A DNA stretch of 64,000 bases from an uncultured Bacilli bacterium (GTDB lineage Bacteria > Bacillota_I > Bacilli_A > RF39 > UBA660): assembly GCA_934141145.1 (NCBI GenBank), contig CAKPCA010000002.1, positions 3,701 through 67,700 of the forward strand. Reading direction: 5' to 3'. The notes under the pieces are model-generated. The model was not told where the DNA came from and did no database searches. It saw nothing but the letters and a program-made list of their open reading frames with translations. Shown here in pieces: positions 42,549 through 60,701 of this stretch. A program made the position numbers and the translations under genes. Each line of letters starts with the position of its first letter. Position 1 is the first letter of the stretch.

Positions 42549-43274
42549 CTATTCCTCCTCAAACATTTTCTTAATTTCTTCTAAATAATTTCCATCTTCG
42601 TCGTGAACATAGATTGGTGGTAACACTTTTAAGGATGATTTACCATTTTTTGCACCTTCTATTAAAACAATGTTAGACTCTTTATTAAACTTTGGATATA
42701 CTAACTGTAATCTTTTAGGTTCTATATTATTTTTTTTCATACAATCTATTATATCAATTAATCTATCAGTTCTATGAACAATCGCTATTGTACCATTATT
42801 TTTAAGAATTTTTCTAGCTACTTTGAAAATATCATCTAAATTTATATATATTTCATGTCTTGCAACTGATTTTATATCATTATCATTTATAATGGATGAT
42901 TCTTTTAATTTAAAATATGGTGGATTGCATGTAATTAAATCAAATGAATCTGATTCGTATTTTTGTGCAATATCTTTTACATCCATATTTAATATTTCTA
43001 TTCTATCCTGTAAATTATTTATTTTGATTGATTTTTTAGCAAGATTATAAACATCTTTTTGAATTTCTACTCCTGTTATCTTTGCTCTTGTTTTTGTACT
43101 TAAAATAAGTGGTATAGGAGCATTTCCTGTACAAAAATCAATTATATTAGTGGTATTCTTTGTTATTTTTACAAAATTACTTAAAAGAACTGAATCAATA
43201 GAAAATTTAAACCAATCTGTATTTTGAACAATCTTTAAATCTTTATAATTTAATAATCTGTTTATTTCTTCCAT
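42549..43274 (-). CDS. tRNA (adenine37-N6)-methyltransferase-like (YabB/TrmN6 family)
   Basis: SAM MTase with NPPY catalytic motif (ITCNPPYF); ricT-yabB-rsmI synteny. Confidence 0.7.
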   Translation of the reverse strand: MEEINRLLNYKDLKIVQNTDWFKFSIDSVLLSNFVKITKNTTNIIDFCTGNAPIPLILSTKTRAKITGVEIQKDVYNLAKKSIKINNLQDRIEILNMDVKDIAQKYESDSFDLITCNPPYFKLKESSIINDNDIKSVARHEIYINLDDIFKVARKILKNNGTIAIVHRTDRLIDIIDCMKKNNIEPKRLQLVYPKFNKESNIVLIEGAKNGKSSLKVLPPIYVHDEDGNYLEEIKKMFEEE

Positions 43275-43275
43275 A

Positions 43276-44076
43276 TTATTTTATTTCTATTATTTCCTTT
43301 TCTTTTGTTTCTATTTTGTATGTTTTACTTATAACATCTACAGAAATAACTTTTCCTTCTTTTTCTTCATATTTAACTACTTGTCCAACACTTGGTAATT
43401 CTTTTTTTAATTCAGTATAAGTATCATCTTCATATGATAAACAGCATAATAATCTATTACAAGAACCATTTATTTTGCTTGGATTCAAAGCTATATTTTG
43501 ATTTTTTGCCATATTAATAGTTATATTATCAAATGTATATAAATACCTTGAGCAGCACATAGGAAGACCACAAGGACCAAGTCCACCAATTTCTTTTGCT
43601 TTATCTCTTGGACCAATCTGCCTCAATTCTATTCTAACTTTATATATTTTTGCAAGTTCTTTTGCAAGTTCCCTAAAATCTACTCTATCAGTGGAAGTAA
43701 AAGTAAAAAATAATTGAGTTCTTTCAAAAGTATAACTTACATCAACTAATTTCATATCTAAATTATATTTTTTTATAAGTTCATTACATTTATAAAAAGC
43801 TTTTTTAGCATCTTTTATATTATTTAAATGTTCTGTATAATCTTTTTTAGTGGAAATACGAATAACGTTTTTTAGTGGAAAACTAATACTTTTTCTGTCC
43901 ATATTTATTATATCAGTTTTAACAGTACCAAATTGTAAACCTCTTTCTGTTTCAACAATTACAGTTAAATTCTTCTTTAATTTAAGATTATTGCAGTTGA
44001 AAAAATATTTTTTTCCATATTTTTTAAATTCTACACCTACTATGTTTACTGAATCATTACTCATGCTTTTCACCAC
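43276..44076 (-). CDS. ricT: PSP1-domain protein RicT (YaaT)
   Basis: Strong similarity to B. subtilis YaaT (VGVEFKK.GK.YFF...RIELRQIG.RD.AK..GG.GPCG...CC...Y...E). Confidence 0.8.
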   Translation of the reverse strand: MVKSMSNDSVNIVGVEFKKYGKKYFFNCNNLKLKKNLTVIVETERGLQFGTVKTDIINMDRKSISFPLKNVIRISTKKDYTEHLNNIKDAKKAFYKCNELIKKYNLDMKLVDVSYTFERTQLFFTFTSTDRVDFRELAKELAKIYKVRIELRQIGPRDKAKEIGGLGPCGLPMCCSRYLYTFDNITINMAKNQNIALNPSKINGSCNRLLCCLSYEDDTYTELKKELPSVGQVVKYEEKEGKVISVDVISKTYKIETKEKEIIEIK

Positions 44077-54232: not shown

Positions 54233-54679
54233 CTAAATACTTTTTCTTTTTCTTAAAATCGATTCTAATTTAGTTGCTCTTAAATATTGATTATCAAAAG
54301 AACCTATTGATATGTCAATTTCAACACTTTCACCATTTTCAAAATATACAATAGACTTACCATTCAAATCTTTATAATCTGTTATGTGATTAAGTGAAAA
54401 CCAAATACAATCTGATAACCTTGGCGATGTACTAGGAAAATATATCATATTTCTACTTTCTTCTATTATAATTGGAGATTTATGACTAACCCCTATTAAA
54501 CTTTTAGTACCCTCATGTCTTCCTAAATATGAGCTACCAAAATATTCACAACTTCTTTCTATTATTTTCATTGTATTCATATTTACTATAAATCTACTAT
54601 TTTTCTCTATTACTTTTGTATTAAAATCATCAATTGGTATCAAAGCTATTGTATCTTTATTGATTTCATAACAATTCAT
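54233..54679 (-). CDS. comK: ComK-family competence transcription factor homologue
   Basis: Segmental identity to B. subtilis ComK: SCEYFGSSYLGRHEGT (vs SCRFFGSSYAGRKAGT), VSHKSPIII...YFPSTSP..SDCIWFS (vs ISHKPPIMV...LFPTLSS..PQCGWIS), SFDNQYLRA (vs SFENQVYRT); RBS AGGAGG; own hairpin plus U-tract downstream. Confidence 0.7.
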   Translation of the reverse strand: MNCYEINKDTIALIPIDDFNTKVIEKNSRFIVNMNTMKIIERSCEYFGSSYLGRHEGTKSLIGVSHKSPIIIEESRNMIYFPSTSPRLSDCIWFSLNHITDYKDLNGKSIVYFENGESVEIDISIGSFDNQYLRATKLESILRKRKSI

Positions 54680-55933: not shown

Positions 55934-56111
55934 AAAAACCCTCCTAGCCTCAAAATCATTATATCATATTATTATTTAAATTTATGTTATTTTTATTATT
56001 ACTGTTGAAAATGTGCATAACTTTGTTTTTCTTTGTAATTTAAAGGATTTTTTTATTTTTTCCTGTGCAATACTTTTTAATAACAAAGTTTATAACTTTT
56101 ATTTATCCACA
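55934..56111. other. oriC downstream module (dnaA-dnaN spacer): DnaA boxes plus AT-rich unwinding region
   Basis: Perfect TTATCCACA at 56103-56111, TGTGCATAA at 56012-56020 (1 mismatch, inverted), and long A/T tracts. Confidence 0.55.
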
Positions 56112-57479
56112 TTACTCTAATTTTTTCTTAATTTCATTAATTATTTTTTCTAGTTGTTTATTACTTTTTATCTCATCTGCAATCTTATCACATGAGTGTA
56201 TTACTGTTGAATGATCTCTTCCACCAAATTCCATACCTATTCTTGGAAAAGATTCATCCGTTAACTGCCTTGATAGGTATATTGCAATTTGTCTTGGGAA
56301 AGCAATAGTTGCTACCCTTTTCTTTGATTTTAAATCATCCACAGAAACATTATAATATTCTGCAACTACTCTTTGTATCTTTTGTATATCATTTTTAAAG
56401 TTTGTAGAAGAAGTAATAGTTCCTTTTAAAGCTTCTATTGCTAAATCAAGAGTAATCTCTTCTTGAAAGAATATTGTTGAATAAGCACAAACTCTAGTTA
56501 AAGCCCCCTCCAAACTTCTTACATCAGAATGACACATATTAGCAATATATTCTATTGCATCTTCACTCATATGACTAGAAAAATCCATATTATTCATTTT
56601 TTTTCTTAATATTTCTTTTCTAAGTTCATTATCTGGTGGAAAAATATTAACTTTTAATCCCCAATTAAATCTAGTTCTAAGTCTATCTTCTAGATGTTTT
56701 AAATCATCTGGAGAACTATCTGATGATATAATTATTTGTTTTTTATCATCATATAATGTATTAAATGTATGGAAAAATTCATTTTGTGTTTTAGGTGCAT
56801 TTCCTAAAAATTGAATATCATCAATTATAAGTACATCGATATTCCTATATTTATCTTTAAATAAATCAACATAGTCAAAATTTGTTCCTTCTTTATCCCT
56901 TTTATTTAAACCAAGAAAATCATTTATAAACTGATCACTTGTAACATATAAAACTCTTTTATTGGTATTTTGTATTATATAATTACCAATGGCTTGCATT
57001 AAATGAGTCTTCCCTAGTCCACTATTTCCATATATAAATAAAGGATTATACATTTTTCCAGGATTTTCAGCAACAGCAAGTGCAGTTGCTTGTGCAAATC
57101 TATTACTCTCACCTACTATAAAATTTTCAAATGTATAATCTGGGTTTAGATTTGCTTTCTCAGGACTATTATAAGGAACACCAATTTCTTCTTGTTTGTT
57201 TTCCACAGGTTTCTTTATATTTTGTTTATTATATTCATTTTCGAGTAAAAACTCTATATTAAAGTTAGTACCAGTGATTTCATTGAATATTTCACTAATT
57301 ATATCTATATATGATTCAGCAAGATGTTTTTTATGAGCAATTGTAGGAACAATAATAATAGCATGTTCTTCATTTAGTTCAACAAGTTTTGAATCTTTAA
57401 ACCACGTATTATATGATAAAGTATTCATTCTCTTACTTATAGTACTTAAAAAATTATTCCAAATACTTTCAATATTCAT
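56112..57479 (-). CDS. dnaA: Chromosomal replication initiator DnaA
   Basis: 455 aa, AAA+ GNSGLGKTHL, C-terminal DnaA-box-binding HTH. Confidence 0.95.
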   Translation of the reverse strand: MNIESIWNNFLSTISKRMNTLSYNTWFKDSKLVELNEEHAIIIVPTIAHKKHLAESYIDIISEIFNEITGTNFNIEFLLENEYNKQNIKKPVENKQEEIGVPYNSPEKANLNPDYTFENFIVGESNRFAQATALAVAENPGKMYNPLFIYGNSGLGKTHLMQAIGNYIIQNTNKRVLYVTSDQFINDFLGLNKRDKEGTNFDYVDLFKDKYRNIDVLIIDDIQFLGNAPKTQNEFFHTFNTLYDDKKQIIISSDSSPDDLKHLEDRLRTRFNWGLKVNIFPPDNELRKEILRKKMNNMDFSSHMSEDAIEYIANMCHSDVRSLEGALTRVCAYSTIFFQEEITLDLAIEALKGTITSSTNFKNDIQKIQRVVAEYYNVSVDDLKSKKRVATIAFPRQIAIYLSRQLTDESFPRIGMEFGGRDHSTVIHSCDKIADEIKSNKQLEKIINEIKKKLE

Positions 57480-57786
57480 AAAACCACCTCCCCTGAATTA
57501 TAGATAGTTTATAGACTTATAAATTAATTATAAACTTAAAATTTTATGTTTTCAAGTAACAAAAAATTATAAACAATACTTATCCACAACAAATGTGTAT
57601 TATTTTCTATATAAAATAAGGAATTTTATAAGTTATAAACATTTTCCACAAATTAACAATAAACAGTTTAATTATAAACAATACGAACTTATCAACAATA
57701 CTGTTTATAATGTGTATAACTTTGTTTAGCTTTATATTATAAACAAAAAATAAAAAAATTTCCACAGTAAATGTGAAAATAATTTA
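57480..57786. other. oriC upstream module: DnaA-box cluster and dnaA promoter region
   Basis: Perfect TTATCCACA at 57579-57587; TTTTCCACA at 57642-57650; ATTTCCACA at 57758-57766; at least 5 copies of TTATAAACA-like degenerate boxes. Confidence 0.6.
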
Positions 57787-58431
57787 TTATCTTTTAAAAG
57801 GATTACCATTTTCCTCTGGATTATTATAAATATCAATATTTTTTCTTTTTAGTTTATCTTCTATTTTTCTTCTTTCAATGTTCCTTTTATTAATCTCAAC
57901 TTCTTCATCAATTAATTTACCTGTTTCTTGTGATGCCATTTTATCACAAACCATTTTATCGATTAAATCATTAATTATAATTATTTCATTTTTAAGTAGT
58001 AATGCATCTTCTCCACTATATTTTTCACACATTACATTAATACTTTCATTTATATAATCTAGATTTGCTTCTAATTTTCCAATATCTTCTAAAGGTGGTT
58101 CTATTAAATTTATTTTTATATCAATTTTGTTTCTTATTAGGTCTCTAAAATTTTGAAATTCTGTGTCAGCGTTTAAAACACTTCTAACTTTACTCATATG
58201 AGAATTTACAATTACTTCACTTTCCTTATAATCATTATCATAGTTTCTTTTAACAAAATCTAAATCACCACTTACAGGAACATGACAAATTGTATTTGCA
58301 TCCCCTTCCCTAAATCTTCTTTTAATTTCATTAATTTCTTCAAGTTGTTTTCTATCACTTTCCTCTACACTTTTTAAATATTTGTATCTAACTAGAAGTT
58401 CTTTTAATTTTTTTTCCTTATCAAATAGCAT
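57787..58431 (-). CDS. Hypothetical coiled-coil protein (214 aa) embedded in the origin region between rpmH and the DnaA-box cluster
   Basis: ATG at 58431 with RBS AGGTAGGAG (7-nt spacer); charged coiled-coil-like N- and C-termini; no recognisable domain; the track's longer version is antisense to rpmH and rejected. Confidence 0.5.
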   Translation of the reverse strand: MLFDKEKKLKELLVRYKYLKSVEESDRKQLEEINEIKRRFREGDANTICHVPVSGDLDFVKRNYDNDYKESEVIVNSHMSKVRSVLNADTEFQNFRDLIRNKIDIKINLIEPPLEDIGKLEANLDYINESINVMCEKYSGEDALLLKNEIIIINDLIDKMVCDKMASQETGKLIDEEVEINKRNIERRKIEDKLKRKNIDIYNNPEENGNPFKR

Positions 58432-58493
58432 ATATATTCTCCTACCTTTATCTATGATTGTACAAGAAATTGTATTATTTTTCAATAAAAATC

Positions 58494-58522
58494 TTGACTT
58501 TATGGTAAAAAGTATATATAAT
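58494..58522 (+). promoter_or_regulatory. Sigma-A promoter of rpmH-rnpA (TTGACT-17-TATAAT)
   Basis: TTGACT at 58494-58499, TATAAT at 58517-58522, exact 17-nt spacer, ~30 nt upstream of the rpmH RBS GGAGG. Confidence 0.5.
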
Positions 58523-58554
58523 TGAAATGTTTTTATGAACTTGGAGGTGCAAAA

Positions 58555-58677
58555 ATGAAAAGAACTTTTCAGCCTAATAATAGAAAAAAAGCAAAGAAAC
58601 ACGGATTTTTTTCTAGAATAAAAGGTAAGGTATTAAATAGCAGAAGAAAAAAAGGACGCAAACAATTATGTAAATAA
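58555..58677 (+). CDS. rpmH: 50S ribosomal protein L34
   Basis: [40 protein letters not shown] (40 aa; below the ORF-track cutoff); RBS GGAGG. Confidence 0.85.
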
Positions 58678-60636: not shown

Positions 60637-60701
60637 TGGTTCTTTTTTTTTGACATTATATATTAAAAATGTTAATATATGCTTTAAAAAGAGGAAGAAA
60701 T

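Follow-up and report, generated by a model that had tools for sequence, protein, structure and literature searches.

The spacer between rpmH and dnaA is non-coding in origins of the Bacillus subtilis type, but in the window analysed here (a stretch of 64,000 nucleotides from an uncultured Bacilli bacterium) it contains an open reading frame of 214 codons, referred to below as gene X. The question raised by this locus is whether a gene located at the edge of the origin takes part in replication initiation, as proposed in a sequence-only reading of the same DNA, or whether its position says little about what it does.

Bacillus-type bipartite origins have the order rpmH, DnaA boxes, dnaA, DnaA boxes with an unwinding region, and dnaN (PMC4285127, PMC7561715). 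The window shares with them the gene order, the presence of boxes on both sides of dnaA, divergent promoters on the rpmH and dnaA sides, and a skew switch, with the sign of the GC skew flipping at the spacer between X and rpmH. It differs from them in that about 770 bp between rpmH and the left box cluster are taken up by a whole additional transcription unit, and in that comK occupies the place between dnaN and recF where a small gene is usual. This ComK-family gene (54233-54679, minus strand; Pfam E 2.7e-48) stands where Bacillus has a small S4-like gene, and it has the same place in conspecific contigs and in the sister species L020. The dnaA gene (56112-57479, minus strand; 455 aa, with Pfam DnaA domains on its orthologues) is co-directional with X, and the 307 bp between dnaA and the X stop codon (57480-57786) hold the left DnaA-box cluster and a candidate dnaA promoter found by consensus scan (TTGAAA-17-TATAAT, 57555-57527, minus strand). 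Four boxes with at most one mismatch were detected, at 57580-57588, 57642, 57689 and 57711, all of them between X and dnaA as the sequence-only reading had stated; the first is indeed a perfect box, although its position had been given as 57579. The AT-rich spacer between dnaA and dnaN (55934-56111) has a perfect box of its own at 56103, about 1.7 kb from X. No box with at most one mismatch was found in gene X or in the rpmH-X spacer (57787-58554). The description of X as inserted inside the origin region is thus accurate in that the gene borders the outer edge of the left cluster, but the cluster is not split by it, and X contributes neither DnaA boxes nor an unwinding region to oriC. Whatever the state of X, the 307-bp box spacer showed 0-1 mismatches (99.7-100% identity) among strains whose neighbouring genes have a dS of 0.02-0.06, and about 15 differences would be expected in this region at the neighbours' synonymous rate. 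The constraint spans the whole spacer at 57480-57786, beyond the boxes alone.

Homologues of X are few. A search of 5.8 billion protein clusters returned 11 clusters with 85-97% identity to X, all from human-gut metagenome assemblies and none with a name or a Pfam domain; their loci have in common the order jag-yidC-rnpA-rpmH / X-boxes-dnaA-dnaN-comK-recF-gyrB. Two hits were added by phmmer over 1.84 billion representatives, a 41-aa fragment and the distant homologue P0012 (212 aa, 45% identical to X). The latter is encoded, intact, on contig L018, where its gene is bordered by rpmH on one side and by the DnaA-box region, with dnaA beyond it, on the other; the N-terminus of the L018 DnaA is 70% identical to that of the window. 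A profile search of the 5.8 billion clusters yielded nothing further for X, and a scan of JGI metagenomes gave no confirmed X locus. In agreement with the earlier statement that X matches no recognised family, hmmscan against Pfam-A at E <= 10 gave only a noise match to Porin_10 and NCBIfam gave noise only (all Pfam and NCBIfam noise at E >= 0.05). The best hit of a profile search against the PDB (E 0.016), a 38-residue stretch of CesA, was rejected as noise. A fold search with the X model showed no similarity to YabA, SirA or any other protein. An origin of X as a phage, plasmid or defence gene was considered and rejected, with only noise in PHROGs, no match in PADLOC and no tblastn hit among phages and plasmids. 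Within the window there is no paralogue of X, the neighbouring 252-aa ORF has no relation to it, and Rfam recognised no RNA family in or near the locus. X is a new protein family, but an orphan one, and orphans are common. The family was missed by every annotation resource tried, and it has two species-level members among the approximately 15 billion proteins represented in two collections.

The coding sequence occupies 57787-58431 on the minus strand (214 codons, with the stop codon at 57787-57789 included in these coordinates), according to the ORF and its translation. The ATG at 58431 opens a protein with the N-terminus MLFDKEKKLKE, and 7 nt upstream of it lies the Shine-Dalgarno sequence AGGTAGGAG (58439-58447, minus strand) that had already been recognised, whose GGAG core is kept in most related contigs. 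A candidate promoter (TTGAAA-17-TACAAT, 58457-58485, minus strand) matches the consensus at 10/12 positions; it is a consensus match only, in a region where promoter-like sites in total are not above chance. At the equivalent place the L018 orthologue has TTGAAA-17-TATAAT, and the promoter block is missing in L020 and in a second sister species, L021, both of which are without X. Directly after the stop codon there is a terminator-like hairpin with a U-run (57745-57785, minus strand), consisting of 9 bp followed by U7AU6; its RNA folds at -11.3 kcal/mol (z = -4.1, with 0/200 shuffles folding as well), and L018 has an equivalent hairpin (z = -3.9). It had been overlooked by a simple terminator scan, which needs G+C-rich stems. 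With promoter, ribosome-binding site, coding sequence and hairpin plus U-run, gene X looks like a self-contained transcription unit. Each arm of the hairpin resembles a DnaA box, the two (TTTTCACA / TGTGGAAA) being inverted relative to each other, so that binding of DnaA could compete there with termination of X transcription; the two boxes are about 35 nt apart in L020, which is without X. On the other side of X, the divergent rpmH (58555-58677, plus strand; 40 aa, PF00468 on the identical gene in related contigs) begins with its ATG at 58555, leaving a divergent spacer of 123 bp (58432-58554). Both this distance and the consensus rpmH promoter in it (TTGACT-17-TATAAT, 58494-58522, plus strand, 11/12 matches) had been described correctly, and the promoter is conserved in L018, L020 and L021. 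Ribosomal protein L34, the rpmH product, is just 40 aa long in the window and in all relatives, compared with the usual 44-46 aa.

An open frame that fits no database family and that no source annotates could have arisen by chance in AT-rich, non-coding origin DNA. The pattern of substitution argues otherwise. Across nine conspecific haplotypes pN/pS of the gene was 0.29, and its values of 0.2-0.35 lie clearly below 1, also downstream of the frameshift described below. It was 0.20 in codons 9-78, which would go untranslated in frameshifted alleles if only the 136-aa remainder of the protein mattered, and these codons are constrained at least as much as the rest of the gene. Since this value of 0.29 is accompanied by a 45%-identical orthologue with conserved motifs, X is shown to be a genuine protein-coding gene under purifying selection. 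Confident AlphaFold2 models obtained from an alignment of six sequences, together with an RBS, a promoter and a terminator-like hairpin that are all in place, also speak against a chance frame; that reading is effectively refuted by the selection and orthology data and keeps almost no probability. Compared with conspecific alleles, X has a pairwise dN/dS of 0.2-0.6, while most neighbouring genes have about 0.03-0.1, and its dN is approximately 10 times theirs. Two diverged types are combined in its alleles as mosaics, with dS of up to 0.23 versus 0.04-0.06 in flanking genes. These two types (window 57787-58431, loci L001-L017), at about four times the flanking dS, recombine and are confined to X, which suggests long-standing allelic classes or else import from a population that had diverged.

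The protein has 214 residues, of which 39 are K or R and 45 are D or E (39% charged, with an acidic pI of 5.3), bearing out its description as highly charged, and composition analysis detected no membrane or hydrophobic segment in it. The AlphaFold2 model (pLDDT 83.7, pTM 0.68, from the six-sequence alignment) supplied the structure prediction that had been recommended and is a confident one, with six helices at residues 2-21, 23-41, 64-85, 89-108, 114-136 and 140-196, a low-confidence loop at 45-62 and a disordered tail. The coiled-coil ends anticipated from the sequence find a counterpart in the predicted N-terminal helical hairpin and C-terminal helix of 57 residues. The orthologue P0012 was modelled with the same topology (pLDDT 80.9). 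The best-conserved stretch between the proteins of the two species is the loop CHVPxSGxxDFVKRN, and the invariant Cys/His residues (C162, H50 and H78, with C49 nearly so) are spread over 113 residues. On the best reading of the model, X would be a soluble, cytoplasmic, all-alpha protein with an N-terminal helical hairpin, a strictly conserved unstructured loop, a bundle and a long charged C-terminal helix. Because it combines a helical bundle with a conserved linear motif and has no DNA-binding or enzymatic signature, we infer that it may work through protein-protein contacts, as a protein-binding adaptor. It is unlikely that its molecular target is the replication initiation machinery (DnaA, DnaN or loader proteins), and the greater part of the probability falls to a target unrelated to the origin.

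The feature that distinguishes X among strains is a homopolymer of eight A in codons 6-8 (GAA AAA AAA; 58408-58415, minus strand). The gene is in frame in 10 of the 26 contigs examined, which have this A8 run, and out of frame in the remaining 16, which have A7 and in which translation ends after 8 codons (MLFDKEKN-stop). When contigs are counted more widely, A8 (18 with the exact X protein of the window and about 9 others) and A7 (about 34, three of them inferred from a 136-aa call alone) are roughly equal in frequency; X is OFF in about half of the strains sampled. The length of 136 aa is that of 7/11 X clusters. In 16/16 contigs with such calls, representing at least six haplotypes, the A7 run was their sole cause. 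Adding one A to A7 contigs produced a stop-free 214-aa frame in 13/13 of those translated, and no second lesion was present in at least six distinct A7 haplotypes. Upstream of Met79 the A7 alleles offer no alternative start (ATG, GTG or TTG), a TAA closing the frame just before the run, so the N-terminal third of the protein could be produced from these alleles only via frameshifting, and the 136-aa calls are a gene-calling artefact and not a shorter isoform.

Tract lengths were read from consensus contigs made with several assemblers, and the possibility that A7 and A8 differ through assembly error was considered. It was rejected, as several assemblers agree and the other A8 runs in the same contigs (in dnaA, in yidC and in the rpmH-rnpA spacer) are invariant, as is a T7 run in the box region. 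Both tract lengths occur on type I and on type II X alleles, and L031 (A8) differs from L029, L030 and L032 (A7) at 2-4 sites in the 870-1400 bp compared. The presence of both lengths on both allele types and in near-identical strains indicates recurrent slippage. The A7/A8 polymorphism is real and recurrent and is tolerated by X, and the OFF alleles are otherwise intact; the switching would also appear to be reversible within clones. Another homopolymer was observed nearby, the intergenic A9 at 60643-60651, located between the stop codon of jag/khpB (60636) and an ORF without a family, which varies from 8 to 11 among strains. This ORF (252/241 aa; 60669/60702-61427, plus strand) is missing in L020 and L021, and in L002 its region is different; the origin block is flanked here by a second gene that is lineage-specific and accompanied by a variable homopolymer.

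The distribution of X among relatives bears directly on its relation to the origin. A scan of a genome collection with DnaA, which did not return the window species itself, identified the two sister species L020 and L021, rabbit-gut MAGs with a DnaA 89-90% identical to that of the window. Their rpmH-dnaA spacers, of 477 and 330 bp, contain DnaA boxes, and tblastn detected neither X nor a remnant of it in these spacers; weak hits were obtained in these genomes outside the spacer and with composition correction off. In L023 (DnaA N-terminus 93% identical) an internal deletion of about 470 bp has left only a remnant of X (L023 141-312), in which codons 1-39 run out of frame into the last 20 codons. 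This deletion apparently occurred between two similar A-rich stretches coding for Lys/Arg, ATTAAAA(A)GA... / CTAAAAAGAAA..., so that A-rich repeats would lie behind the loss of the gene as well as the frameshift switch. The arrangement rpmH-X-boxes-dnaA, whose conservation had been proposed as a check, therefore recurs in L018 but is absent from L020 and L021 and is reduced to a remnant in L023, and X is not kept wherever the origin is kept. Because an intact copy exists in the outgroup L018, the DnaA tree would imply that the ancestor of the clade already had X and that the gene was lost independently at least two or three times. Its loss or degradation in three relatives' lineages shows X to be dispensable. 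As the box spacer stays unchanged while X is lost or frameshifted, origin function is independent of X. The earlier proposal of X as an origin or initiation factor is not sustained by a gene that is lost in relatives and frameshifted in about half of the strains next to an unaltered box spacer.

Taken together, X is probably a lineage-restricted accessory gene that behaves as a contingency-type ON/OFF locus with a non-essential product. Slipped-strand mispairing at the A8 run in codons 6-8 would switch the gene, A8 being ON and A7 OFF, and both states are common in human-gut populations of the species and would interconvert recurrently. The function of X would be useful only sometimes and separate from basic origin activity, and OFF alleles would be kept intact by recombination and by selection that favours the ON state from time to time. 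Contingency genes with homopolymer tracts are known from Campylobacter jejuni, Neisseria meningitidis and Mycobacterium tuberculosis (PMC3025981, PMC5084427, PMC11898584). Like them, X has, early in the coding sequence, a run of a single nucleotide in which one-base changes toggle the frame, both states occur among near-identical strains, having arisen more than once, and the OFF alleles are otherwise intact; as a system it is a member of the simple-sequence-repeat ON/OFF class. The usual targets of contingency genes are surface structures, restriction-modification and secretion, whereas X is a cytoplasmic orphan at the edge of oriC. Its tract, known from consensus contigs, is also only a poly-A of 8, of a kind common in the genome, and is not conserved in the orthologue. 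Neither over-representation of the tract nor its maintenance by selection was found. A8 runs are ordinary in a genome of 24% G+C, in which dnaA and yidC carry one too, and the L018 and L023 orthologues have no A-run at the tract site, which weakens the case for an evolved switch; the tract may be no more than the place where a non-essential gene is most often broken. Also counting against the contingency reading, the dN about 10 times that of the neighbours and the repeated loss fit relaxed constraint.

Relaxed constraint taken to its end would make X a decaying gene, with the A7 alleles as ordinary nulls heading to deletion and a function lost or irrelevant in the human-gut species. Loss in L020 and L021, the remnant in L023, the predominance of A7 among the sampled alleles, the tenfold dN and a tract that behaves like the unconstrained intergenic A9 at 60643-60651 (8 to 11) are all consistent with such decay. 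It is nevertheless an unlikely explanation for a gene whose pN/pS remains at 0.2-0.35 even downstream of the frameshift, whose A7 haplotypes, at least six of them distinct, have acquired no second lesion, whose A8 alleles persist on the same backgrounds and whose L018 orthologue is intact. The intact and constrained state of the OFF alleles could also mean that A7 alleles are still expressed, through RNA-polymerase slippage or -1 ribosomal frameshifting on A_AAA_AAT before the TAA, in which case the tract would set the dose of the protein. The sequence shows that a -1 shift during reading of the A7 mRNA would yield a protein identical to that of A8, and slippage on A-runs restores frameshifted genes elsewhere (PMC4256274, PMC5009743). 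Slippage-rescued genes include Citrobacter tssM1 (PMC4256274) and genes of endosymbionts (PMC5009743). X resembles them in having a frameshift in an A-run with a stop codon immediately after it, in an AT-rich, host-associated genome. In those cases, however, the runs are of 9-11 or longer and the frameshifted state is conserved, whereas X has a run of 7/8 and frequent in-frame alleles. Runs for which efficient slippage by RNA polymerase is documented have a length of at least 9 (9 in Thermus dnaX and 11 in tssM1; PMC5009743, PMC4256274), so that A7 is short, and the existence of in-frame A8 alleles means that the frameshift is no conserved decoding feature. X accordingly shows neither the conserved frameshift nor the run of at least 9 for RNA polymerase that mark a recoded gene, and such rescue is very improbable.

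There remains the reading with which the locus was first approached, that X is an origin-associated regulator which binds DnaA, DnaN or the boxes and tunes initiation, perhaps in place of a missing YabA. YabA (PF06156), which restrains initiation in Bacillus and other Firmicutes, binds DnaA and DnaN; it has about 120 aa, with an N-terminal coiled coil and, at the C-terminus, a zinc-binding domain in which a Cys/His cluster is conserved. SirA (PF10747), the sporulation inhibitor of replication, is an alpha/beta protein of about 150 aa that binds domain I of DnaA. That these known non-essential initiation regulators are small and lineage-specific favours such a role for X, as does its position by the DnaA-box cluster, co-directional with dnaA and kept while the protein fell to 45% identity. 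The absence of yabA from its place between ricT and yabB, reported in the sequence-only reading, was also upheld, with no gene between ricT/PSP1 (43276-44076) and the next methyltransferase (42549-43274). The order at that place is ricT/PSP1, then 1 nt, then this small-domain methyltransferase. The conserved loop, disordered in the model, could be a docking motif. X is similar to YabA in being small, helical and non-essential, but it has 214 aa and ends in a charged helix and a disordered tail instead of a C-terminal Cys/His zinc cluster. The earlier judgement that it does not look like YabA was right, as it has no Pfam match even at E <= 10 and no YabA structure appeared among the fold hits. 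With SirA it would share, if the origin reading were right, the character of a small lineage-specific protein acting on DnaA, but X is predicted to be all-alpha and has no sequence match or fold hit to SirA. The promoter region and the coding sequence of X are free of DnaA boxes, and X is absent in the nearest sister species and deleted in another while the box cluster is retained, besides being OFF in about half of the conspecific contigs. Synteny adds little weight, since rpmH-dnaA is conserved by default; because the neighbourhood is so stable, a gene inserted there would stay syntenic by inertia. A role as a core replication factor and an obligatory link between X and DnaA are both unlikely, a role in tuning initiation is improbable, and the more specific proposal that X docks DnaA, DnaN or the loader via the CHVPxSGxxDFVKRN loop and the bundle, with initiation control being phase-variable, is more improbable still.

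The accessory ON/OFF gene favoured here bears on the biology of this lineage in several ways. Few gene orders in bacteria are as conserved as rpmH-dnaA-dnaN, and in this genome a whole additional transcription unit has nevertheless been accommodated there. If X were a phase-variable modulator of initiation, ON and OFF cells would differ in origin firing or in the coupling of initiation to growth rate, and if it touches the initiation machinery at all, the natural ON/OFF strains would be a ready-made knockout series. If X has no role in initiation, the locus is a caution that adjacency to oriC is weak evidence of origin function. In either case, X represents a clean natural ON/OFF homopolymer polymorphism in an uncultured gut commensal, with OFF alleles that are held intact.
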